From positions 22,581 through 86,580 of the forward strand of contig JALQXX010000001.1 of NCBI GenBank assembly GCA_023262965.1: a DNA stretch of 64,000 nucleotides, read 5' to 3'. Source of the stretch: Candidatus Marinamargulisbacteria bacterium. Its GTDB lineage: Bacteria > Margulisbacteria > Marinamargulisbacteria > UBA817. The translations under genes were made by a program, and so were the position numbers. This document shows positions 50,024-61,454 of the stretch, piece after piece (position 1 is the stretch's first letter; each line of letters starts with the position of its first letter). The notes under the pieces were generated by a model. It was not told the DNA's origin, searched no databases, and saw only the letters and a list, made by a program, of their open reading frames with translations.

Positions 50024-50794
50024 TCAATGAATGTCCCGAATATAGTCCACAACGGTATGGTGAACCACACGATTACTGGTGATGACGTTTCCTGAATAAA
50101 TTGTGTCTTTGCCGGATGTGTCACTAAATTGCCCGCCCGCTTCTTCGACAATAATTTTGAGCGGGGCAATATCCCAGGCATTTAAATTAAAGTCAATTGC
50201 GTATTCGCCGCAGCCCATGGCCACCAGCATATGCGGATAAAAATCCCCAAAGCCGCGCTGACGCCCGGTATCCCGCAGTAAATCAATCACACGGTCGGGT
50301 TGCTTGGACGCTTCGGAGCCGAATAAACTCCCGTAAAAGCCGTTGGCATTCGCTAGCGAATCAATGCCCGATACGTGAATACGATCGCCATTGTAGTAGG
50401 CCCCGTGGCCTTTTTGCGCCCACCATCGGCCATGAAGGGCGGGTGCCGAGACCATGCCCGCAATGACCTGACCATTATCTTCAATCGCAAATAATGACCC
50501 AAAAAAGGGCAGTCCGCGAATAAAATTTTTGGTGCCATCAATGGGGTCAATAATCAATTTTAAGGTCGAATTGGGGTGTAATGTACTGCCGTACTCCTCC
50601 CCAATAATGGATAGGGGGAGATTCTGATCACGAACCGTCGCGCGGATGTGATTTTCAATGGCCAAATCGGCCGCAGATACCGGCGTTTGGTTATCTTTAA
50701 TTTGCACATCCAATTTGCTGGATTTGAAGTGACTCATAGCGATTGTGTCGGCATGATCGGCGATGGTGGTTAAAAAGGGTATCCAGTGTGTCAT
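50024..50794 (-). CDS. inositol-monophosphatase-family phosphatase (SuhB/HisN/CysQ-like)
   Basis: IIDPIDGTKNF and WDIAPLKIIVEEAGG motifs. Confidence 0.8.
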   Translation of the reverse strand: MTHWIPFLTTIADHADTIAMSHFKSSKLDVQIKDNQTPVSAADLAIENHIRATVRDQNLPLSIIGEEYGSTLHPNSTLKLIIDPIDGTKNFIRGLPFFGSLFAIEDNGQVIAGMVSAPALHGRWWAQKGHGAYYNGDRIHVSGIDSLANANGFYGSLFGSEASKQPDRVIDLLRDTGRQRGFGDFYPHMLVAMGCGEYAIDFNLNAWDIAPLKIIVEEAGGQFSDTSGKDTIYSGNVITSNRVVHHTVVDYIRDIH

Positions 50795-50848
50795 AGGGTT
50801 TATTATGCCGTAATTGGTGTCAACACACAATCGGCAAATACTGGGGGA

Positions 50849-52144
50849 TTATAGACGCAGTTGATTGTGATGATCACGTATAAATCCCTGAATAACCGCT
50901 AATGTGTCATCAATGACCGCATCATTGTGCTCGGAGGATACAAAATTGGCTTCATAGGGCGATGGTGGAATTAAAATGCCGTGGTCTACCATGTAATTAA
51001 AATAGGCTTTAAAAAGATCGGTATTGCTATTGTTCACGTCGGTTAGGGATCGAACCGGTGTTGCGCTAAAAAATACAGTGAACATGGTGCCAAGCGCATT
51101 CACCTGCATGGCCACATTGTTCGCCTGACACAGATGCTGTATGCCTGCAACCAAGCGGTGGGTTTGACGTTCAGCGGTCTCGTACACACCGTAATCGGCA
51201 ATCAACGACATCATCGCCAATCCCGCACGCATAGCCAGCGGGTTGCCCGATAATGTGCCGGCTTGATATACCGGCCCCAAGGGGGATACGTGGTGCATTA
51301 ATGCCGTGGATCCGCCATATGCGGCACAGGGCAATCCCCCACCAATCACCTTGCCCAAACAGGTGATGTCCGGTGCAATCCCATAATGACCTTGAGCGCC
51401 GTTTTTGTGAACACGAAATCCCGTCATTACTTCATCAAAAATGAGCAGGGATCCGTGATCTGATGTGATGCGTCGACACGCATGTAAAAATTCTGGGTCG
51501 GGCAATACAACCCCCATATTGCCGCACACCGGCTCCATGATTAATGCCGCAATTTGAGCGCCGTATTGATCAAAACAGGTCGTTAAAGCGGCCGTGTCAT
51601 TAAAGGGAATAACATGCGTAAATGCGGTGACTTCGTGAGGAATCCCCGCACTGCTGGGCGTTCCCAAGGTTAGCCCGCCGGATCCCGCAGATACCAATAA
51701 ACTGTCCACATGACCATGGTAACCGCCCTCAAATTTAACCAAGTGCGATCGATTCGTCGCGCCACGCGCCAGTCGAATGGCACTCATCGTGGCTTCGGTG
51801 CCGGAATTCACAAATCGGATGGTTTGCATCGCGGGCATCATCGATTGAATACGCTTGGCCAAGGCGGTTTCATGCCGGGTCGGGGCCCCAAAGGAGGTTC
51901 CTTTAATAATCGCGTTGTGAATGTCGGCAATCACCATATCATGGGCGTGACCAGCCAGGAGTGGCCCGTAAGACAACACGTAATCGCAGTAGCGCTTGCC
52001 CTCAACCGAGGTCACATAGGGGCCTTTTCCGGATTCAATAAATATTGGGTCGCGACCAACCGCTTTGTAGGCACGAACAGGGCTGTTGACGCCGCCTACC
52101 AATACGCTTTGAGCATCCGCAAATAAGGTGTTACTTGTTACCAT
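50849..52144 (-). CDS. hemL: glutamate-1-semialdehyde 2,1-aminomutase
   Basis: GGVNSPVRAYKAVG, class-III aminotransferase fold; 431 aa. Confidence 0.9.
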   Translation of the reverse strand: MVTSNTLFADAQSVLVGGVNSPVRAYKAVGRDPIFIESGKGPYVTSVEGKRYCDYVLSYGPLLAGHAHDMVIADIHNAIIKGTSFGAPTRHETALAKRIQSMMPAMQTIRFVNSGTEATMSAIRLARGATNRSHLVKFEGGYHGHVDSLLVSAGSGGLTLGTPSSAGIPHEVTAFTHVIPFNDTAALTTCFDQYGAQIAALIMEPVCGNMGVVLPDPEFLHACRRITSDHGSLLIFDEVMTGFRVHKNGAQGHYGIAPDITCLGKVIGGGLPCAAYGGSTALMHHVSPLGPVYQAGTLSGNPLAMRAGLAMMSLIADYGVYETAERQTHRLVAGIQHLCQANNVAMQVNALGTMFTVFFSATPVRSLTDVNNSNTDLFKAYFNYMVDHGILIPPSPYEANFVSSEHNDAVIDDTLAVIQGFIRDHHNQLRL

Positions 52145-52173
52145 TGATTATAGTCTACTAAAAAACACCCGCA

Positions 52174-54126
52174 TTAGGCTATATAGCGATTCTGTTTACT
52201 TTCAATGGTATTTAATAAGGACTGAAGAATGGTTTGATATAGCCGATCCCCATAAACCGCATCCTCCACCGTGTCATCGATGTTGGGATTATCATTGACT
52301 TCAATAATATATACGTCGTTATTCACCTCTTTTAAGTCAATACCATACAGTCCACGACCAATGGCTAAGGATGCCTGCACCGCTTTTTTGATGACCCGTG
52401 GAGGCACCGATTGAATGGGCAGCGTTTCCCAGTTTCCCGAAGATGCGTGATCGTTTTCCCAGTGATAAATTTGCCAGTGACCTGACGCCATGTAATACTT
52501 GCAGGCAAATAGGGGTTGATTATTAATTATCCCAATTCGCCAATCATAAGGTGTTGGCAAAAATTCCTGCGCAATAACCAAATCACTTTTTTTGAACATG
52601 TCTTTTAAAATACGGTAATAGTCGTCGCTGGTGTTCGCCAAATACACCCCTTTCGAAAACGATGATTCGGGTAATTTTAAAACAATCGGGAAGGTGGAAA
52701 TGTTCAGCGTCGTGTGATCATACAATTTAGGGGATACAATCCAGGATTTGGGTAGGGATAGCCCGCGATTGGTGAGACGTTCATGCAGATAAATTTTATT
52801 GGAGCACATCAAGATGGACCACGGATCATCAATCACGACCAAGCCTTCGGTATACGCTTGACGGGAGATGTCATAGGTGTGATGGTTAAGGGCCGTTGTT
52901 TCACGAATAAACAGTGCATCAAACTCACAAATCCGCTTGCGATCTCTTTTGGTAATAAATTCAACATATAATCCCATTTTTTGACCAATATCTTTGAATT
53001 TTTGCAGCGCTACTTCACAAGACGGTGGTGTGGGGTCATCGGGATTGACCAGTATCGCGACATCGTATTTGTAATTTTTTAATTTGATTCGGTTGTATCG
53101 TTTTTTGGCAATGTATTTTTTAAGGCCGCTTTTGAATATATCGGGGTAGTTATTAAGAACGTAATTCAAACTGATATGTTTTAATTTGTAAATTGTCCAG
53201 TGCGTCTTTTTTTTGAATTCAATACGAATAAAGGGCCATTCAAATAATCGAAATAGTTGCTTGGTTATTTTATTGAATTTTTTTTCGGTAGCTAAACCAA
53301 AAATCATCGTGATTTGGATATGCGAGCGGCTGTCTTTATCTAAAATGGTTTGAAACACAGGATCGATTTCATACAGAAGGGAATCGTGGACCCCCATGTT
53401 GGTATAATCGTTAATGGTTACAATAGAGGGCATAACGCGATGGCCGCGTGCGGATGCCAATAAGGATACGTAATACCCGACGCTGTGAATAGTATAGGTT
53501 CGACTTAAATTGATAACGTGATAAAAGTTTGAGTGAATAAACACCTTGTTGGTAAAGTAGTCCTGACTGGAAAATAATTGTAACGAGGTGAGTCGGGATA
53601 ATTGTTTTTGATGGGTATCGGCAATAATAATCATACGGCCTTCCGGATTGGCGCGATGATTAATCCACTCCATTCGAACCGCGTGATAACCCGATTCATA
53701 ATAATTGGGCAACGATTCTACTGATGTAAATCCATAGGATGTGTACCAACGCAATAGACGGGCATTGGCAGCATCGGCTTCAAGCCGAATCCGTTCGTAA
53801 TTCATATCGACGGCGTAAGTCATTACATGGCTGAGTAATGCATGACCTACCCCGTGATGTTGATGGTCTGGCAATACCCCAATGGAATATAACCGAATGG
53901 TTTTTTTGTATATAAAAAATATGGCGCTGCCACATAGTACGTTGGTATCGTTTTCCTGAATGTAGGCCACCAGTACGTGCTGATAGTGGCTGGATACACT
54001 ATTGGAAATACTGGCCATGGAACTTTGTAGGTACTCTTGAAAAGCGGTTTTCTCTAATTCACACAGAAACGAATAATCGTCGCTGGTGGCGTTTCGAATA
54101 TAAATGGTTGGCTTTGATTTTATCAT
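52174..54126 (-). CDS. bifunctional GNAT N-acetyltransferase plus RimK-like ATP-grasp ligase (Ngg-like architecture)
   Basis: N-terminal GNAT (VLPDHQHHGVGHALL); C-terminal ATP-grasp (FPIVLKLPESSFSKGVYL, IAQEFLP, YGIDLKEV...VYIIEVNDNP); 650 aa; ATGA-overlaps the cobA/hemD stop. Confidence 0.65.
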   Translation of the reverse strand: MIKSKPTIYIRNATSDDYSFLCELEKTAFQEYLQSSMASISNSVSSHYQHVLVAYIQENDTNVLCGSAIFFIYKKTIRLYSIGVLPDHQHHGVGHALLSHVMTYAVDMNYERIRLEADAANARLLRWYTSYGFTSVESLPNYYESGYHAVRMEWINHRANPEGRMIIIADTHQKQLSRLTSLQLFSSQDYFTNKVFIHSNFYHVINLSRTYTIHSVGYYVSLLASARGHRVMPSIVTINDYTNMGVHDSLLYEIDPVFQTILDKDSRSHIQITMIFGLATEKKFNKITKQLFRLFEWPFIRIEFKKKTHWTIYKLKHISLNYVLNNYPDIFKSGLKKYIAKKRYNRIKLKNYKYDVAILVNPDDPTPPSCEVALQKFKDIGQKMGLYVEFITKRDRKRICEFDALFIRETTALNHHTYDISRQAYTEGLVVIDDPWSILMCSNKIYLHERLTNRGLSLPKSWIVSPKLYDHTTLNISTFPIVLKLPESSFSKGVYLANTSDDYYRILKDMFKKSDLVIAQEFLPTPYDWRIGIINNQPLFACKYYMASGHWQIYHWENDHASSGNWETLPIQSVPPRVIKKAVQASLAIGRGLYGIDLKEVNNDVYIIEVNDNPNIDDTVEDAVYGDRLYQTILQSLLNTIESKQNRYIA

Positions 54127-55562
54127 AAATTCTCCAAAATTTTCTCAATAATAGATTCAATGCTAGGGTAGGTTGATTCGTGAATGTCTTGAGCCCCATA
54201 CCCACACAATGCGCGGGTTGTTTGAGGACCGATACTCATAATCGTATGGGCAGAAAATGCGGGGTATACGGCGTGTAAGCGATGGACTGAGGCGGCATTC
54301 ATTACAATAAACGTGTCCGCAGGATGAATCCATTCAAGGGCCATCGGAGGGATGCTGGGGACTGTGTTGGTGTATACGGTTACATAGGTGACACGATCGG
54401 AGTGGGTGGTTTCCAACACGCGGTCCGATTCGCTGGAGCTGGGGACAAGCACGCGATCATGAGGGGAGATGGTATCTAAAAAGGCGGTGAAGCCTTCAGC
54501 GGAGGGATGGGTTGCAATATGATCGGGGGTAATGCCGTAATCCTGCAGCGCGTTTTGGGTTTGGGTGCCAACCACGCCAATACGGGTGTGAGCCCATTGC
54601 CGAATATCCCCGTGGGTGTGCCGAATGGATTCAAAAAAGCCGCAAACCCCGTTTTGACTGGTGAATAGCAGATGGGAAAATGCCGATGGGGTGATGCTGG
54701 TTAATGCATCGGGGTGTGTGGTGATGGTATTTAAGGGAAGTTGCAGGGTTTCGGCCCCCAATGTGTGAAGGGCGTTGGCCAACTTGGATTGTTGATGGGC
54801 TGCCCGGGTCACCACAAATCGACGGTTGTGCAAGGGTAGTCGATGGCGCCAATCCATGCGATGACGGATGGTATCGCCCACAACCACCAGAGCAGGGGGT
54901 TGTACCTTATGCGTTCCTTGAATGGCTTGAATCGTTTGAAGGGTACCCGTTACCACGCGTTGATTGGCGGTTGTTCCCGATTCAATAATCGCAATCGGGG
55001 TGTCTTTTCCGCGTAATGGGGTTAATGTGTCCACAATATAATCCAATTGATATAATCCCATCATAATGACCAGTGTATCCGCAGATGGCCATTCCGGAGC
55101 CGGTGTATCATGAGCACGAGTAGCCGTCACAAAGGCCAGTGAATGCGCGGTATCCCGATGGGTGACGGGAATGCCTGCGTAGGTAGGGGCCGCAATTGCG
55201 GAACTGATGCCCGGTATGATTTCAAATGGAACCTGGTGGGCGGTGAGCCAATCAATCTCTTCGGCGCATCGACCGAATATCATGGGGTCCCCGCCTTTTA
55301 AACGGACCACGCATTTGCCGGCCCGGGCATCGGCAACCAACCGCTGGTTGATGGCGGTTTGTGTTACCGAATGCCGCCCCTTTTTCTTGCCAACACATAT
55401 TTTTTCAGCATGATCATTGGCCATAATCAGATTGGGGTGCACCAAATAATCGTATAAAATAACATCGGCCAATTGAATGATACGGTGGGCCTTTTGGGTA
55501 ATGAGCTCCGGATCACCCGGGCCTGCACCCACCAAGTAGACAGCGGTTGGGGCAATGGTCAT
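54123..55562 (-). CDS. fused uroporphyrinogen-III C-methyltransferase / uroporphyrinogen-III synthase (CobA-HemD)
   Basis: N-terminal SUMT (VYLVGAGPGDPELIT, GGDPMIFG); C-terminal HemD-like half. Confidence 0.8.
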   Translation of the reverse strand: MTIAPTAVYLVGAGPGDPELITQKAHRIIQLADVILYDYLVHPNLIMANDHAEKICVGKKKGRHSVTQTAINQRLVADARAGKCVVRLKGGDPMIFGRCAEEIDWLTAHQVPFEIIPGISSAIAAPTYAGIPVTHRDTAHSLAFVTATRAHDTPAPEWPSADTLVIMMGLYQLDYIVDTLTPLRGKDTPIAIIESGTTANQRVVTGTLQTIQAIQGTHKVQPPALVVVGDTIRHRMDWRHRLPLHNRRFVVTRAAHQQSKLANALHTLGAETLQLPLNTITTHPDALTSITPSAFSHLLFTSQNGVCGFFESIRHTHGDIRQWAHTRIGVVGTQTQNALQDYGITPDHIATHPSAEGFTAFLDTISPHDRVLVPSSSESDRVLETTHSDRVTYVTVYTNTVPSIPPMALEWIHPADTFIVMNAASVHRLHAVYPAFSAHTIMSIGPQTTRALCGYGAQDIHESTYPSIESIIEKILENL

Positions 55563-56407
55563 AGTGTTAATAATCCATGAATCACCTGCTCAGGCGAATC
55601 ATACGTCATGTAGTGACCATGATTCATGTGCTCTACAAACACCCGCCATTCACGCCTTGGCGTGTAGTAAACGCCTAATGGGCAATGGCAATTGAATGCA
55701 ATACCTTCGAGGATGCGGTAATAGTCTGCCCCACGTTTTTGGGTGTCGTTATCCCCAATCGCAGCTAAACAATCCCCAATACGGGTATCATTTGCACGAT
55801 GCTGGAGTGCAATTATCCCTTGACCGGGTGCTGGAACAAAATCCATGGGATCCAACTCATGGGTGATTTGGTGATCCAGCCCCAAGCGTTGCAGTCCGGC
55901 TGTGGATAAAATAAGCCCGTCGTACCCCCGTTCTTTGGTAAGCGTAATACGGGTGTCACTATTACCACGAATGGGTTCGCAGGTAACCAAGGGGTACAGC
56001 ATTCGACATAAGGCTTGCCGACGCATACTGCCCGTTGCCAAGCGGGTAGGCTCCGTTTTTAAACAGCGATTGGTGACCATAATCACGGCATCGGTGGCAC
56101 GTTCCTGGGTGACATACCGCCCATACACCAAATCCGATGACGGCCGCGCGGTAATGTCTTTAAACGAATGGACCCCAATATCAATCTGATGGGCGCTTAG
56201 GGCGACTTCAATTTCCTTAACAAATACATTTTTGCCACCAATTTCGGATAAAGGGTTGGGATTGCGGTCCCCGGATGTTTGAATGATATGGATTGTAACA
56301 AGGCTATGGGGATAGGCCTTCTGAAGCATTTTTTGAATATATCCCGCTTGCTTTTGGGCCAACGCTGATCCGCGTGTCCCTAAGCGTATTGGGATAGGGG
56401 CTGACAT
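55559..56407 (-). CDS. hemC: hydroxymethylbilane synthase (porphobilinogen deaminase)
   Basis: IRLGTRGSALAQKQA; start at the internal Met. Confidence 0.85.
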   Translation of the reverse strand: MSAPIPIRLGTRGSALAQKQAGYIQKMLQKAYPHSLVTIHIIQTSGDRNPNPLSEIGGKNVFVKEIEVALSAHQIDIGVHSFKDITARPSSDLVYGRYVTQERATDAVIMVTNRCLKTEPTRLATGSMRRQALCRMLYPLVTCEPIRGNSDTRITLTKERGYDGLILSTAGLQRLGLDHQITHELDPMDFVPAPGQGIIALQHRANDTRIGDCLAAIGDNDTQKRGADYYRILEGIAFNCHCPLGVYYTPRREWRVFVEHMNHGHYMTYDSPEQVIHGLLTL

Positions 56408-57426
56408 AATTTTTTTTCGGACCGATAGTGATCCCAACGGTGTAATTCGGATATGGCGTTGTCAATAAAGCGCATAACCGGTTCGATATCGTTTTTTCGG
56501 GTTTGAATGGTTTGATTGGATATGGCTTCTAATTCCGCTACCCCCACAAGTGTTACGGATGCCAACGTTCCGCAATCCGGGGATACATTTCGTGGAATCC
56601 CCAAATCAATGATGGTTAGGGCATGGTCAATGTGCCCAATGTCACAGCAACGAATAAAGGGCTCTTTTGATGAAATGGCAATGTAGAGCGTTCGAAATTG
56701 ATGGAATTGGTGTCGCACGGTTGCAAATGGGATCACCTGAATATGGGGTATTGTCTCCGCCAAGGTGTCCACACGACTCATGGTTCGATTGGCAATGGTC
56801 AGCTGACTATGCCCCATAGCGCTTAATTTAACCAAGGCCCGTTGAATCATCATCCCCGATCCAATCAATAACATGGGCTCGTTTAAAAAGTTGGGATTGT
56901 GTTGCTTAATCGCTTCGATCCCAATCGAACTAATGGAATGTGCCCCAGCAGAGATTTGCGTCTTGGTACGGGCTTCTTTTCCAGTAGCAATAATGGACTG
57001 AAATACTTTGTTTAAATGCGCGCGTGTGGCCCCAAATTCCATGCAAAATGCATGGCCTTGCTTAATTTGTGTTAAAATCTCACTTTCTCCGATCACCATG
57101 GATTTGAGGCCGCAGGCCAGCTCATGCAGATGGCGTAAGGCACTGTTGTGATGGTAAAGCGTCGTAATGGTCGACAAAATGGACGTCGCAATGCCCGTTA
57201 AGGCATGAATTTTTTGATGAAGAATGCTAACGGCTTTTTGAGGATGGGGTGATGTAAAGACCCATTCCGTACGATTGCAGGTGGATATAATAACCATTTC
57301 GTCAAAAAATAATGTGCCCAGTAATGTGGATAAATAGTGTGTCATATCATCTTTATTGCACGATACTTTTTCAAGTAGAGCAATAGGTGCGGTTTTAAAA
57401 TCAATGCTTAAAACAACAATCATCAT
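56380..57426 (-). CDS. hemA: glutamyl-tRNA reductase (short, 348 aa)
   Basis: STCNRTEWVF active-site Cys; NADP-binding GSGMM. Confidence 0.85.
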   Translation of the reverse strand: MMIVVLSIDFKTAPIALLEKVSCNKDDMTHYLSTLLGTLFFDEMVIISTCNRTEWVFTSPHPQKAVSILHQKIHALTGIATSILSTITTLYHHNSALRHLHELACGLKSMVIGESEILTQIKQGHAFCMEFGATRAHLNKVFQSIIATGKEARTKTQISAGAHSISSIGIEAIKQHNPNFLNEPMLLIGSGMMIQRALVKLSAMGHSQLTIANRTMSRVDTLAETIPHIQVIPFATVRHQFHQFRTLYIAISSKEPFIRCCDIGHIDHALTIIDLGIPRNVSPDCGTLASVTLVGVAELEAISNQTIQTRKNDIEPVMRFIDNAISELHRWDHYRSEKKLCQPLSQYA

Positions 57427-57522: not shown

Positions 57523-58437
57523 TTAGGTGGCGGACTGTATAGATGATACTTCTAAAATCAGTCGGTCCCCGGGACTGACACGCTGTTTGAACGCAATTTT
57601 TCTGGCAGCTATTGTGGTTACAATGCCTTGTGGCGATATGGATAAGACCATGCCTTTCATATCGCAGATTGGAATAAAGGTATCGGATACAATGCGCGCA
57701 TCCATTTGCCACACGCCCGCGGATAGTTCAGAACGATGGTGTAAATCGGTGACGGTGTCTTCCAACATTTGCCACTGAGATACCCCCATCATCACGGGAT
57801 TTCCGGGAAAATGGCCCCGGGTTAAGGGGTGTTGAAGGGAGTACGTTAGCCCGTACAACGCATAGCCCGATTGGTGGGTGTAGCGGGTATCAATAAAGGT
57901 CATGTGCGGATTTTTATACGCAAACGGTGCAATCGCTACCGGATGGGCAAGCGCGTCGGGGTGCATGGGCGGCACCGGATCGGGACGGTTGGGTTCGGAG
58001 GGGGCTTCTTGGGTATAAAAAGCCGTTAAATCCCCACGCGCCTGTGTGTCTCCGCAGGATAAGGTGAATGCGTGTTTGTAAAATCCGTTCCTGTGACTGC
58101 GTTTTTGGGTGGCTCCTTGAATGGGGGTGTCGGCCGTGCAGGGCCCGCCGGTTAATGTGAAATTACTGATGCCAGCAAAATAGGCAAAATAGCCCGGTTT
58201 GATGGCCCCGGAACTACTAATGCAGGCTAAGGCCGCGATTTCGGTGGTTAAAGGCGTGGGGAGTTGGGGGGGGCTATGATTGTCCCAAAATAGGGTTCGT
58301 CCCAAGGTATCGTTGGGCGATATGTGTAGCGAAAAATCACTCGAATCGGGGGATGTAATTGTAACCGTGTCCAATAACATGTTTTGGTAACGATGGGGAA
58401 TGCGGTCACAAATAGCGGTATAATCCAATACGGTCAT
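57523..58437 (-). CDS. tandem hotdog-fold protein, FabZ-like (degenerate N-terminal copy, catalytic-His-containing C-terminal copy)
   Basis: N-half: IPHRYQNMLLDTV and YFAYFAGI (FabZ LPHRFPFLLVDRV / YYFAGI) but no HFPG. C-half: RGHFPGNPVMMGV and AFKQRVSPGDRLILEV. ATGA overlap with the upstream sigma factor. Confidence 0.6.
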   Translation of the reverse strand: MTVLDYTAICDRIPHRYQNMLLDTVTITSPDSSDFSLHISPNDTLGRTLFWDNHSPPQLPTPLTTEIAALACISSSGAIKPGYFAYFAGISNFTLTGGPCTADTPIQGATQKRSHRNGFYKHAFTLSCGDTQARGDLTAFYTQEAPSEPNRPDPVPPMHPDALAHPVAIAPFAYKNPHMTFIDTRYTHQSGYALYGLTYSLQHPLTRGHFPGNPVMMGVSQWQMLEDTVTDLHHRSELSAGVWQMDARIVSDTFIPICDMKGMVLSISPQGIVTTIAARKIAFKQRVSPGDRLILEVSSIQSAT

Positions 58438-59261: not shown

Positions 59262-61454
59262 ATGGTGCTGAATCAATCCAAATCGTATGCGTATGATTCC
59301 CGAAAAATTCAACCGGGGGATGGTTTTATATGCTTGCCCAAAGGGGATGCGTATATTAACGATGCTTTGGCACGTGGTGCAACGGAGGTGGTTCGATTGG
59401 ATCGCTTGGGTTTTGCTCAGGAAAGCCATCGGTACTATGGAGACCCCACCAAACAGGTGTGCTTGATTGGGGTTACGGGTACCAATGGGAAGACATCGGT
59501 GGCGCATTTTACGGCGCAATTGTTGCGGCAATCGGGGTATTCGGTATTGGTTATTGGAACCATGACGTCGGCCTTAACCACGCCAGAATCGTGGGATATT
59601 GCAAAGCAGATTCGACACCATGTGGATAATGGGGGTACGCATGTGGTAATGGAAGTATCATCGCATGGTATTGATCAAGGGCGTGTGTTGGAATGCGCGT
59701 TTGATGTCAAATGCTTGACCAATATTACCCATGATCATCTGGATTATCATAAGACCTTTGATGCTTATAAAGCCACTAAGATGCACTTTATGATCGATTA
59801 CCCGGGCGTCGCAATTTATGCGGATGAGGTGCCGTTATTGGCGGAGAATTTGCCACAACTTATGGGGGCTTTTCATAAAAAAAATGTGGCAACGGCCATG
59901 GCTATATGTCGTATTTTGGGAATCAATGCCACGACCTTGAAGGCCGTTTTGCCCAAACTCACCGCGCCTGCGGGACGGTTTCAACCGGTGATTTTGGGGC
60001 AGCCCTTTCATATTATTGTGGATTTTGCCCATACCCCGGATGCGTTGGCGGTTGTGCTAACCGATGCGTTGGCATTGGTGAATGGGCATCGGGAGCGGGT
60101 TCGGGTTGTATTTGGATGTGGGGGGGATCGGGATACCCGTAAACGGTCAGAAATGGGGCGAATTGCGGGTGAATATGCCGATCATGTGTACCTAACATCG
60201 GACAATCCGCGATCGGAATCGCCGGAGGCCATTATTGCGGCGATTCAAACGGGGGTGTCGAGGCCCGGTGTCCAAGCCATTACAGATCGTCATTCGGCTA
60301 TCGCGCGGGTGATTGCGGATGCGAACCCACGTGATATTGTGGTGATTGCGGGTAAAGGGCATGAAGCCTATCAAGTCATGCGCTGGTATCGCTATCAGAG
60401 TGATGATGTGGCCATAGCCACGTATGAAGTGATTCGCCAAAATCGGTATCATACATCGGTTACCTGGGTGATGGATGATTTGAAAACGCCTGCGGATGTG
60501 GTGTTTATAACAAAAAATAAGTCGCAAGCATTGCCCTACGCACCGATTCCCTATTGTCAGGTGAAGCCAACACCGTCGCAGGGCCGTGTCCGGGATTATT
60601 TGGCCAAAATCAAAGGTCCTAAACTGTGTATATTGGAATCGGCAAATCGATTTTCGATGATGGGATGGTTGCACTATGTGTTGGGGCGTTTGGGCAGTGT
60701 AACCGTTGTGGACGGCATGACCTTGCCGACAGTACCCCATCAATTGGCGCAGATGATGTTAATTGAACAAACGGTGAACCCGGTGATTATTCGATTGGAC
60801 CCCAATCACCCGGGATTCTTATCCCAGTGGGTATCGGTTATTCAGCCCGAGCATATTATTGTGGGTGACAATTATCACGCTAATGGGTATGTCGCGCCAT
60901 CGGTTGTGACGGTGTTAAAAAATAAAGTGACAATGCGTGATTATGCGTGTCCATTATGGATTCACGATCGCATGGCCGATATCAACGATGCGCTTGGCGA
61001 TTATGCGTATTTACGATGTGTTAAGGCGCCGCATTGGGTGGATTATTGTGTGAGGCTCGCCCAACAATTAATGGTTGAGTTGGATAAATACCACAGCCCG
61101 CTTTCGGATATGTTTTATGAATACAGTATGACCCGGCGGTGGCTGCAAAAAGTGCAGTGGTCGGATGGTTCTGTAACGGCATACGCCGCATTGGGTTCAT
61201 CGGATGAATGGGCGATGCACCAATATGTGGATTATATGAATCATGTATCAGCGACGGTGTATCACCATATTGCCACTTCGGAGGGGGATCGGTGGGCGCG
61301 GTATTTGCGGCAATGGTGCCGATCCACGGACCGCATTCAGGTGTATGATCCACCAACCGTGACGGCCTTCGCGAATACCGTGCAATCGCGCCCCGATGCC
61401 CTGCATGTCATATGGTGCCAGCATTTTTCGGACATGAACACATGGACTACGTAA
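59262..61454 (+). CDS. murE: MurE-like UDP-MurNAc-tripeptide ligase (~400 aa) fused to a ~330-aa C-terminal domain of unknown function
   Basis: GVTGTNGKTS P-loop, DNPR specificity motif (LTSDNPRSE), GKGHE; the 330 aa after GKGHE...QNRY have no Mur-ligase motifs. Confidence 0.7.
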   Translation: MVLNQSKSYAYDSRKIQPGDGFICLPKGDAYINDALARGATEVVRLDRLGFAQESHRYYGDPTKQVCLIGVTGTNGKTSVAHFTAQLLRQSGYSVLVIGTMTSALTTPESWDIAKQIRHHVDNGGTHVVMEVSSHGIDQGRVLECAFDVKCLTNITHDHLDYHKTFDAYKATKMHFMIDYPGVAIYADEVPLLAENLPQLMGAFHKKNVATAMAICRILGINATTLKAVLPKLTAPAGRFQPVILGQPFHIIVDFAHTPDALAVVLTDALALVNGHRERVRVVFGCGGDRDTRKRSEMGRIAGEYADHVYLTSDNPRSESPEAIIAAIQTGVSRPGVQAITDRHSAIARVIADANPRDIVVIAGKGHEAYQVMRWYRYQSDDVAIATYEVIRQNRYHTSVTWVMDDLKTPADVVFITKNKSQALPYAPIPYCQVKPTPSQGRVRDYLAKIKGPKLCILESANRFSMMGWLHYVLGRLGSVTVVDGMTLPTVPHQLAQMMLIEQTVNPVIIRLDPNHPGFLSQWVSVIQPEHIIVGDNYHANGYVAPSVVTVLKNKVTMRDYACPLWIHDRMADINDALGDYAYLRCVKAPHWVDYCVRLAQQLMVELDKYHSPLSDMFYEYSMTRRWLQKVQWSDGSVTAYAALGSSDEWAMHQYVDYMNHVSATVYHHIATSEGDRWARYLRQWCRSTDRIQVYDPPTVTAFANTVQSRPDALHVIWCQHFSDMNTWTT

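Follow-up and report, generated by a model that had tools for sequence, protein, structure and literature searches.

A gene of an uncharacterized acetyltransferase–ligase family inserted between cobA/hemD and hemL in a heme operon

The window, by which is meant the whole 64-kb stretch of DNA that was analysed, carries on its minus strand a string of genes in the order sigma factor, ORF304, hemA, hemC, a cobA/hemD fusion, gene X, hemL and an IMPase-family gene. The order hemA–hemC–cobA/hemD–X–hemL had been proposed in an earlier reading made from the letters alone (the sequence-only reading), and profile matches bear it out. The hemA (56380-57426; TIGR01035, 229 bits, cut-off 209.55), hemC (55559-56437; TIGR00212, 214 bits, cut-off 164) and hemL products (50849..52144; TIGR00713, 570 bits, cut-off 527) all score above their NCBIfam cut-offs, as does the cobA part of the fusion (NF004790, 289 bits, cut-off 198), and the hemD part passes Pfam HEM4. 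The fusion (54123..55562) is the upstream neighbour of X and is predicted to encode a uroporphyrinogen-III C-methyltransferase joined to a uroporphyrinogen-III synthase (Pfam TP_methylase, 3.6e-51; HEM4, 1.2e-27). The downstream neighbour, hemL, encodes a putative glutamate-1-semialdehyde 2,1-aminomutase and is followed by the IMPase-family gene (50024-50830).

Both junctions of X can be read directly from the sequence. The start codon of X overlaps the stop codon of cobA/hemD in an ATGA (54123..54126, minus strand) with GGAG 6 nt upstream, in agreement with the coupling described in the sequence-only reading, and a spacer of 29 nt (52145..52173) separates the stop codon of X from the ATG of hemL. 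A pattern scan, whose promoter and terminator counts were at or below shuffled expectation and hence uninformative, listed no terminator-like site in either junction. When aligned with its relatives, the cobA/hemD product stops where they do, and the fusion has therefore not been truncated by the insertion of X.

Gene X (52174..54126, minus strand; ATG start, stop codon at 52174-52176) encodes a protein of 650 aa for which the ORF list, the translation and Pfam indicate a GNAT–RLAN–ATP-grasp architecture. A GNAT domain of the RimI or N-terminal-acetyltransferase type (53647..54126; approximately residues 1-160) is followed by a basic RLAN region with an ATP-grasp-like predicted fold and a non-catalytic appearance (53077..53646; approximately residues 161-350), and then by a pre-ATP-grasp and ATP-grasp ligase domain of the RimK/LysX/ArgX clade (52177..53076; residues 351-650), all on the minus strand. 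The Pfam matches are to Acetyltransf_1 (residues 22-133, 5e-13), RLAN (PF14401; residues 188-330, 1.3e-36, 126 bits, cut-off 25) and, C-terminal to RLAN, the RimK ATP-grasp (residues 442-618, 3.8e-8). The GNAT and RimK-type ATP-grasp domains noticed earlier in this single ORF are thus both confirmed, but the description of a two-domain protein has to be amended, as RLAN lies between them. The PGAP name for the family is the generic 'GNAT family N-acetyltransferase' only.

X is a real gene because it is 650 aa long, has three significant domain matches and has more than 100 full-length homologues; a chance ORF is ruled out on these sequence grounds. Copies that are 100% identical, with the same flanks, are present on three other metagenome contigs, and the four contigs come from different samples. 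That X is a passenger gene in decay, without a present function, might be suspected from the lineage-specific insertion and the long branch of X in the family tree, but is barely credible given this identity across samples, an intact 650-aa frame in which all 75 family-invariant residues are kept (113-sequence alignment), a proper RBS and the coupling to the upstream gene.

In the GNAT half, residues Q89-H-H-G92-V-G94, E116, Y128 and N141-Y142-Y143 line up with counterparts in E. coli RimI, which we take to be the Q/RxxGxG/A acetyl-CoA motif, the catalytic Glu and Tyr, and the NYY peptide-binding loop. The Glu and Tyr are among the 75 family-invariant positions. By sequence, and also by fold, this half is closest to RimI, Ard1 and the Naa enzymes. 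RimI and the N-terminal acetyltransferases (Naa10/50/60, Ard1) are free-standing, whereas the GNAT of X is fused to a ligase, and X reaches 55.2 bits against TIGR01575 (RimI), below the cut-off of 86.4.

The ligase half is closest to ArgX, LysX and RimK. Residues K444, K484, Q520-E521, D597 and E609-N611 of X, which are invariant across the family, align with K100, K141, Q177-E178, D248 and E260-N262 of RimK, presumably the ATP and Mg2+ ligands. The RSNLHRGG (RSNxxxGG) substrate/phosphate loop of RimK is replaced in X by HWQIYHW...SG (residues 550-564), and the replacing loop itself has invariant positions in the family (HWQIYxW...G). Because of this replacement, glutamate specificity of X is not assured. 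Overall identity to RimK, the ribosomal protein S6 poly-alpha-L-glutamate ligase, is 22%, and X differs from it in its added GNAT and RLAN domains. No match to Rimk_N (PF18030) was found in X by Pfam. The scores against the named ligase families likewise fall short, at 61.6 bits for TIGR00768 (RimK; cut-off 143.4), 21.6 for NF007764 (also RimK; cut-off 331), 52.6 for TIGR02144 (the LysW gamma-glutamyl ligases LysX/ArgX; cut-off 275.6) and 47 for MptN (1.5e-12; cut-off 350). Near X there is neither a gene for a LysW-like carrier nor any gene of lysine or arginine biosynthesis. The eukaryotic NAAG synthetases RIMKLA and RIMKLB, and MptN and CofF, belong to the RimK family and attach L-glutamate to small molecules, in the case of NAAG synthetase to an N-acetyl amino acid. 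Unlike X they carry neither a fused GNAT nor RLAN, and they are the closest analogy for the chemistry that X is proposed to perform.

The RLAN region is basic (pI about 10) and carries an invariant motif, GYYVSLLASAR (residues 217-227). Its predicted fold hints that it may be a degenerate ATP-grasp-like module, which would be a small addition to the understanding of the RLAN domain. An origin by internal duplication of the ATP-grasp half of X was considered and rejected (hhalign probability 1.8%), leaving similarity at the level of fold only. RLAN also occurs in proteins of approximately 490 aa that have PF14401 and PF08443 and, unlike X, lack a GNAT domain; examples such as P. aeruginosa WP_016253675.1 are 38-42% identical to residues 163-646 of X. 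This GNAT-less branch makes up most of the 342 related cluster representatives, and is likewise functionally uncharacterized. Its usual operon is conserved and consists of genes for a C39-like peptidase, the RLAN–RimK-like protein, a GCS2 ligase and an N-formylglutamate amidohydrolase (26-43 of 59 loci). Genes for the peptidase, the GCS2 ligase and the amidohydrolase are confined to the GNAT-less loci, and none was found beside X or its full-length homologues. Iyer and colleagues are said to have predicted in 2009 that the GNAT-less RLAN–RimK proteins are peptide-metabolite synthetases.

The sequence-only reading placed X in the slot where hemB would be expected. Its observation that hemB is missing from the window holds, as tblastn with E. 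coli HemB as the query gave no match within the 64 kb at E<=10. In addition, nothing significant was found in the approximately 7 kb past the window end, available on a contig of the same organism, which carry ftsW, murG, an oxidoreductase gene and a 1298-aa ORF. The expectation of hemB at this position corresponds to the Firmicutes order, and is not supported by the nearest relatives of the cobA/hemD product (47-53% identity), which belong to named Margulisiibacteriota; the uncultured, Margulisbacteria-like lineage bearing X is probably also of this phylum. Three of these loci (L090, L091 and L094) have hemC–cobA/hemD–hemL with 120-145 nt between cobA/hemD and the aminotransferase gene hemL, and two (L092 and L093) have hemA–hemC–cobA/hemD–dus. 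Neither X nor hemB is at this position in L090-L094. Since the nearest relatives have cobA/hemD and hemL with neither gene between them, there was no hemB slot for X to fill. Taking the ancestral order from these relatives, which are distant at about 50% identity, the comparison shows X to be inserted between cobA/hemD and hemL, genes that adjoin one another in the relatives. X has no ALAD domain (Pfam) and no similarity to porphobilinogen synthase. This removes the tempting interpretation of X as a hemB replacement, and no new step of the heme pathway is revealed.

More than 100 full-length homologues of X were found, with 43-56% identity over 98-100% of the length. Full-length proteins account for 28 of the best 80 matches among GTDB species genomes, and for about 14 clusters among the best 150 of the 342 representatives at E<=1e-30, where the matches span approximately residues 8-649. 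X is thus shown by sequence comparison to be an intact member of a small but widespread, functionally uncharacterized family of proteins of about 650 aa. The approximately 30 independent full-length loci are mostly stand-alone genes, and no hem gene lies within 10 kb of any of these other homologues. The closest homologue (56% identity), also not near hem genes, has a non-coding upstream region of 186 nt and a convergent selO downstream. By its own account, two findings together would have told against the sequence-only reading, a hemB just beside the operon and known orthologues in a non-conserved neighbourhood; common orthologues without a conserved neighbourhood were found, and a hemB next to the operon was not. 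It had also called the co-transcription of X with tetrapyrrole genes unexplained. The ATGA coupling stands, but with some 30 homologues located away from hem loci the association is best explained as a one-off, lineage-specific insertion of a widespread gene.

The alternative that X acts in tetrapyrrole metabolism in this lineage, through glutamylation or acetylation of a hem enzyme or of a carboxylate of a tetrapyrrole, or by replacing the chemistry of HemB, draws on the translational coupling of X within the hemA–hemC–cobA/hemD–X–hemL string, on the failure to find hemB in the window and on the glutamylation of cofactors by some ligases of the RimK family, among them MptN, whose model X matches as given above. 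CofF is a further ligase of this kind. X might have been recruited to attach glutamate or an N-acetyl-amino-acyl group to uroporphyrinogen III, precorrin-2 or siroheme at a carboxylate side chain, or to modify a hem enzyme covalently. This would parallel cofactor glutamylation by MptN and CofF, and would make co-translation with cobA/hemD functional instead of accidental; we consider such recruitment very unlikely. All of the approximately 30 independent full-length loci lie away from hem and cob genes, and X is not specially diverged at family-invariant sites. As the relatives lack hemB at the position of X, nothing has been replaced, and X is dissimilar to porphobilinogen synthase. Moreover, the condensation of two 5-aminolevulinate molecules is beyond both GNAT and ATP-grasp chemistry, which counts against a replacement of HemB. 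A tetrapyrrole role in any of these forms is therefore given very little credence, and the link of X to the tetrapyrrole genes looks incidental. Tight translational coupling is also what would be expected of a recruited pathway gene.

Most of the named hosts of the family live in the sea or are halophilic, among them Maridesulfovibrio, Pseudodesulfovibrio, Limihaloglobus, Balneolaceae, Prolixibacteraceae and Izemoplasmataceae. The family also spans Desulfovibrionaceae, Kiritimatiellia, Marinilabiliales and Izemoplasmatales, and its hosts are mostly marine or saline anaerobes, a bias that could be a sampling effect. Amongst the full-length loci there is no conserved neighbour, small acidic carrier or peptidase neighbour. 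MscS genes adjoin the X homologue in L009, L014, L022 and L030 and lie 3.5 kb off in L006, which represents perhaps two independent events, and a true RimK gene (Zn_protease–Rimk_N–RimK) adjoins the homologue in L022. The homologue of L006 (8001-9992 of that locus) is the one of Maridesulfovibrio salexigens (CP001649.1, about 3,215,751-3,217,742). IMPase-family genes adjoin X homologues in L021, L023 and L024 and are one gene away from X in the window. The IMPase gene of L021 is followed by an APS kinase gene and so is CysQ-like in look, and that of the window is HisN-like, although below the HisN cut-off. As the IMPases probably belong to different subfamilies, this linkage is treated as coincidence.

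The sequence-only reading likened X to the Ngg type, in which N-acetylation and peptide-bond formation are combined in one polypeptide with an osmoadaptive role, and for which clustering of asnO and ngg is described as conserved (PMC8070244). The general enzyme logic of that proposal, acetylation with ATP-dependent amide-bond formation, agrees with what is reported for Ngg (PMC8070244), and S. meliloti Ngg and P. aeruginosa PA3460 have two chemistries in one polypeptide, as is predicted for X. Membership of the Ngg type is not upheld, as no specific sequence relationship to Ngg was detectable. No Ngg-named model is present among the 21 NCBIfam families matched at E<=0.01, nor among the best 25 of 37 at E<=10; the Ngg model is, we assume, TIGR03103 and part of the NCBIfam library. 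Nor did tblastn with X give anything at E<=1e-5 for pSymB of S. meliloti (NC_003078.1), which was in the searched collection and presumably encodes the characterized Ngg, though the same search did detect ordinary RimK genes at 23% identity. To our knowledge, RLAN is not a feature of Ngg. The asnO-like amidotransferase that the earlier reading suggested seeking did not appear, since tblastn with E. coli AsnB found no AsnB/AsnO-like gene in the 64-kb window or within 10 kb of any full-length homologue. The cluster of Ngg usually includes an M42 peptidase as well, and the loci of X and its full-length homologues have neither an asnO partner nor a conserved peptidase neighbour. An Ngg-type N-acetylglutaminylglutamine synthetase, which would supply NAGG as the intermediate on the way to the osmoprotectant NAGGN while the gene for an AsnO-type amidotransferase lay elsewhere, would suit the mostly marine or saline hosts as well as the joining of GNAT and ATP-grasp in one polypeptide, but on this evidence is improbable.

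The main rival to an N-acetylated peptide as the product is that X modifies protein termini. The GNAT would acetylate an N-terminus and the ligase would add one or more glutamates to a C-terminal carboxylate, on one or two target proteins such as an S18/S6-like pair or a LysW-like carrier, and the basic RLAN (pI of about 10) would dock an acidic tail. In E. coli, S18 is the substrate of RimI and S6 that of RimK, and these two proteins form a heterodimer. The kinship of the GNAT half with RimI, Ard1 and the Naa enzymes is consistent with this, as is that of the ligase half with ArgX, LysX and RimK, which all add to the C-terminal residues of proteins; for both catalytic halves, the closest relatives of solved structure work on protein termini. 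However, no S6 or S18 gene was found in the window or near X in the approximately 90 loci examined, and the full-length loci lack a conserved small acidic carrier or any other conserved neighbour. A true RimK coexists beside the homologue in L022, X scores far under the RimK, LysX and RimI cut-offs, and the RimK clade includes small-molecule ligases such as MptN. Modification of proteins is thus conceivable but rather doubtful.

Synthesis of an N-acetylated short peptide is preferred. Literature searches returned nothing relevant on a characterized GNAT–RLAN–ATP-grasp protein, and for this reason we infer the substrates and product of X from family kinship only. By analogy with its relatives, X most likely makes an N-acetylated short peptide, which probably contains glutamate. 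The ATP-grasp domain would activate an alpha-carboxylate as an acyl-phosphate and couple it to an amino acid through the amino group of the latter; by comparison with RimK, LysX, MptN and the NAAG synthetases, this amino acid is most likely L-glutamate. Acetylation of the free alpha-amino group with acetyl-CoA would fall to the GNAT domain, giving a short, acidic, N-acetylated peptide, and the basic RLAN module may hold the acidic substrate or product. The weakest step concerns the role of this product, for which that of an organic anion or compatible solute seems most likely because the hosts are mostly marine or saline, the genes stand alone and MscS neighbours are occasional. The explanation as a whole, an inserted gene of an uncharacterized family with an N-acetylated acidic short peptide as the product, is advanced with moderate confidence. 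If correct, it would mean that anoxic marine bacteria have a solute or metabolite not described before, made by a single gene that lends itself readily to expression. The family is in any case a conserved three-domain acetyltransferase–ligase, predicted to be catalytically intact, in many marine or saline anaerobes.

As to its origin, X may have arrived by horizontal transfer, and would now be transcribed by read-through from the promoter of the hem genes, with its translation coupled to that of cobA/hemD. The association would thus reflect expression and not pathway. The locus would then illustrate the slotting of a foreign gene between adjacent operon genes and its translational coupling there. 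Composition was considered as proof of transfer and set aside. The GC content of X is 0.41 against about 0.50, with the dip mostly in codon positions 1 and 2, and GC3 (0.445) is taken as within the local range (0.46-0.55); because the low GC comes mainly from amino-acid composition, it does not prove a recent transfer. In a neighbour-joining tree, X pairs with P0002, with long branches, amongst sequences of the Desulfovibrionaceae and Kiritimatiellia types, a position that is not the one expected of a Margulisbacteria gene.

The ORF X (52174..54126, minus strand) lies where the sequence-only reading placed it and comprises 650 codons from an ATG start. Its GNAT domain (residues 22-133; Pfam Acetyltransf_1, 5e-13) and RimK-type ATP-grasp (residues 442-618; Pfam, 3.8e-8) were also read correctly, but Pfam shows a third domain in addition to these two, the 'RimK-like ATPgrasp N-terminal domain', RLAN (residues 188-330; PF14401, 1.3e-36), reportedly defined by comparative genomics by Iyer and colleagues in 2009. 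Q89-xx-G92-x-G94 aligns over the acetyl-CoA motif of Escherichia coli RimI, E116 over RimI E103, Y128 over Y115 and N141-Y142-Y143 over the NYY loop, RimI residues with catalytic and substrate-binding roles. A full-length AlphaFold model (pLDDT 87) is confident within domains, its pTM of 0.54 leaving their relative placement undefined. Judged by sequence, X is an intact and conserved enzyme of three domains in which the catalytic sets for acetyl-CoA and ATP-grasp are both complete, and that it is a decaying passenger is extremely improbable.

X lies in a same-strand string in the order sigma-70-family factor, 304-aa ORF, hemA, hemC, cobA/hemD fusion, X, hemL, inositol-monophosphatase (IMPase)-family gene and STAS protein. 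Curated NCBIfam cut-offs are exceeded by the products of hemA, hemC, the cobA part and hemL, and the Pfam HEM4 threshold by that of the hemD part. X has the same orientation as cobA/hemD and hemL and is translationally coupled to them: its start codon overlaps the cobA/hemD stop as ATGA, with GGAG 6 nt upstream, and 29 nt separate its stop from the hemL ATG. A pattern scan, with overall counts no higher than shuffled expectation, listed no terminator-like site at either X junction. Copies 100% identical to X, with the same flanks, occur on two JGI contigs and one ENA contig, NCBI also being among the sources. RpoB from the window shares 63-69% identity with proteins named Candidatus Margulisiibacteriota, Margulisbacteria or Marinamargulisbacteria, with other relatives up to 86%; a match at 72% is labelled 'Proteobacteria bacterium', probably a binning label.

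The 304-aa ORF (57523-58437), the start of which overlaps the sigma gene end by 4 nt, has no Pfam family, its matches, FabZ-like or 'ApeI-like', being weak and short. HemA (56380-57426) is short (348 aa), with GlutR_N and NAD(P)-binding domains and no match to the C-terminal dimerisation domain; its match to the 416-position TIGR01035 model spans positions 1-343. Such a length may be usual in this lineage, since HemA in a relative (L092, 6099-7178) has 359 aa. At its longest, the hemC ORF shares 58 nt with hemA; the JGI start call for hemC is later.

X had been proposed to occupy the hemB position of a Firmicutes-like operon (hemAXCDBL). E. coli HemB indeed has no tblastn match in the window at E<=10, and nothing significant was found in about 7 kb beyond the window end on a same-organism contig. 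The nearest named CobA/HemD proteins are from Margulisiibacteriota (47%) and Marinamargulisbacteria (38%), and the ancestral order was read from contigs bearing the closest CobA/HemD proteins. In two relatives, L090/L091 (51%; one from a TARA sample) and L094 (47%, a Margulisiibacteriota MAG), hemC-cobA/hemD is followed after 120-145 nt by a class-III aminotransferase gene, the hemL counterpart; in a third, L092/L093 (53%), the order is hemA-hemC-cobA/hemD, then dus. None of the three carries hemB or an X-like gene at this position, and HemB tblastn was negative on all these loci. On this evidence cobA/hemD and hemL are ancestrally adjacent in this lineage, and the Firmicutes analogy is inapplicable here. 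By this sequence comparison, X appears as a gene placed into a short cobA/hemD-hemL spacer; nothing replaces hemB, which, if present, is encoded elsewhere in the genome. The insertion left cobA/hemD untruncated, since its product ends at the same final alignment column as its relatives. The first reading of the anatomy thus stands, and most of the biological puzzle disappears.

A search of 5.8 billion proteins returned one homologue of X at 56% identity (P0002), then more than 100 full-length proteins (GNAT, RLAN and ATP-grasp) at 43-48%. No reading frame stays open across the 186 nt upstream of P0002, and its neighbour is a convergent selO; unrelated genes surround the homologues in a Logan contig, Maridesulfovibrio salexigens and Limihaloglobus sulfuriphilus. 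In GTDB genomes, scanned at one per species, there are at least 597 related loci, and of the best 80 of them 28 are full-length. When the window HemA, HemC, CobA/HemD and HemL were compared by tblastn with all 88 loci, no hem gene adjoined an X homologue outside the window's own species; the only matches were distant, to hemA or an aminotransferase 3-8 kb away in GNAT-less loci. The hem linkage is an accident of insertion in one lineage, and a role in tetrapyrrole metabolism, which the location had suggested, is highly improbable.

Clustering of flanking ORFs revealed no neighbour conserved across full-length loci. A small MscS channel gene recurs beside the homologue in L009, L014, L022 and L030, an MscS gene lies 3.5 kb away in L006, and IMPase-family genes, probably of different subfamilies, lie nearby in L021, L023 and L024. 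Two unrelated contigs, one from a Logan assembly and one from L. sulfuriphilus, encode a SET-domain protein of about 200 aa directly downstream of the homologue and in the same orientation (L005, 10008-10598; L007, 9996-10607). The homologue is flanked by the gene for a radical-SAM protein of about 415-435 aa in three genomes of Marinilabiliales, and in L022 a convergent Zn_protease-Rimk_N-RimK fusion follows it (radical-SAM and RimK-fusion neighbours: L014, 12128-13366; L018, 8748-9992; L022, 8638-9951 and 12040-13419).

A neighbour-joining tree of 113 family members, drawn with no support values, pairs X with P0002 on long branches amid Desulfovibrionaceae- and Kiritimatiellia-type sequences. 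This position, the unconserved hem linkage and the lack of a conserved neighbour argue for a horizontally acquired gene whose insertion is specific to this lineage. Composition contributes little to the case: the GC content of X is 0.41 against about 0.50 in its neighbours, the gap lying mainly in codon positions 1 and 2 (0.44 and 0.33), and in GC3 (0.445) X is close to hemA and to the gene for the sigma factor.

The domain pair had been likened to that of N-acetylglutaminylglutamine synthetase (Ngg). The enzyme logic is common to both; family membership is not. No Ngg-named NCBIfam model is among the matches listed for X, even at an E-value limit of 10, and those to the RimK family (61.6 bits; cut-off 143), RimI (55.2; cut-off 86), LysX and MptN are all sub-threshold. 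A tblastn search of 72,556 plasmids was sensitive enough to retrieve RLAN-RimK genes that lack GNAT (38-42% identity) and even, at 23%, ordinary rimK genes. It gave no match on Sinorhizobium meliloti pSymB, which was included and which reportedly carries asnO-ngg (Sagot et al. 2010). AsnB/AsnO-like genes are absent from the window and from the 10 kb around each full-length homologue, whereas for ngg a conserved clustering with asnO has been described (PMC8070244). On these searches X is not an Ngg orthologue, and an Ngg-type role is very unlikely.

By analogy with RimK, LysX, MptN and NAAG synthetases, the ligase would form an acyl-phosphate on an alpha-carboxylate and couple it to an amino acid, probably L-glutamate; the RimI-like domain would cap a free alpha-amine with acetate, and RLAN may hold the acidic partner. 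With a free amino acid or peptide as substrate, the product would be an N-acetyl acidic peptide. The nearest solved relatives of both halves of X are protein-terminus enzymes, which would fit modification of protein termini. Against this, the gene mostly stands alone and is accompanied by no conserved gene for a target or carrier; genes for S6 and S18 are missing from the vicinity of the homologue in every locus examined; and a true RimK coexists with it in L022. These points, the mostly marine or saline hosts and the MscS neighbour in some loci favour the small-molecule substrate, and a protein-terminus modifier seems rather unlikely. An inserted gene encoding an N-acetyl-peptide synthetase is, on balance, the somewhat favoured account. 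The family may offer a tractable single-gene target for a new N-acetyl peptide metabolite in marine anaerobes or, alternatively, a new kind of protein-terminus modification there.

X adds a member, in an unusual host and position, to a catalogued, functionally uncharacterised family; a literature search found no experimental work on either RLAN branch. Among 1.84 billion cluster representatives, 342 match X at E<=1e-30. GNAT fusions of full length account for about 14 of the best 150, and most others are proteins of about 490 aa starting at the RLAN module. The GNAT-less genes (L031-L088; e.g. L036, 9307-13438, and L038, 9237-14058) lie in a strongly conserved operon, second after the gene for a C39-like (papain-fold) peptidase and ahead of those for a GCS2-type carboxylate-amine ligase and an N-formylglutamate amidohydrolase. 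This four-gene string, present in 26-43 of 59 loci from Bacteroidota, Planctomycetota, Gammaproteobacteria and others, has the look of a pathway for a peptide metabolite that is as yet uncharacterised. In the X branch a fused acetyltransferase seems to have taken the place of these partners.

Elsewhere in the window, a Mur-ligase ORF (59262-61454) encodes 730 aa, well above typical MurE or MurF length, with Pfam matches confined to residues 71-366 and a C-terminal half without a match. By composition the window has two parts, 1-43500 and 43500-64000: the rpoB/rpoC, elongation-factor and ribosomal-protein operons have a GC of about 0.39 and GC3 of 0.25-0.35, against about 0.49 and 0.5 in housekeeping genes from 43.5 kb on. 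GC skew is positive across the window, even at the gene-strand switch at about 41.7 kb.
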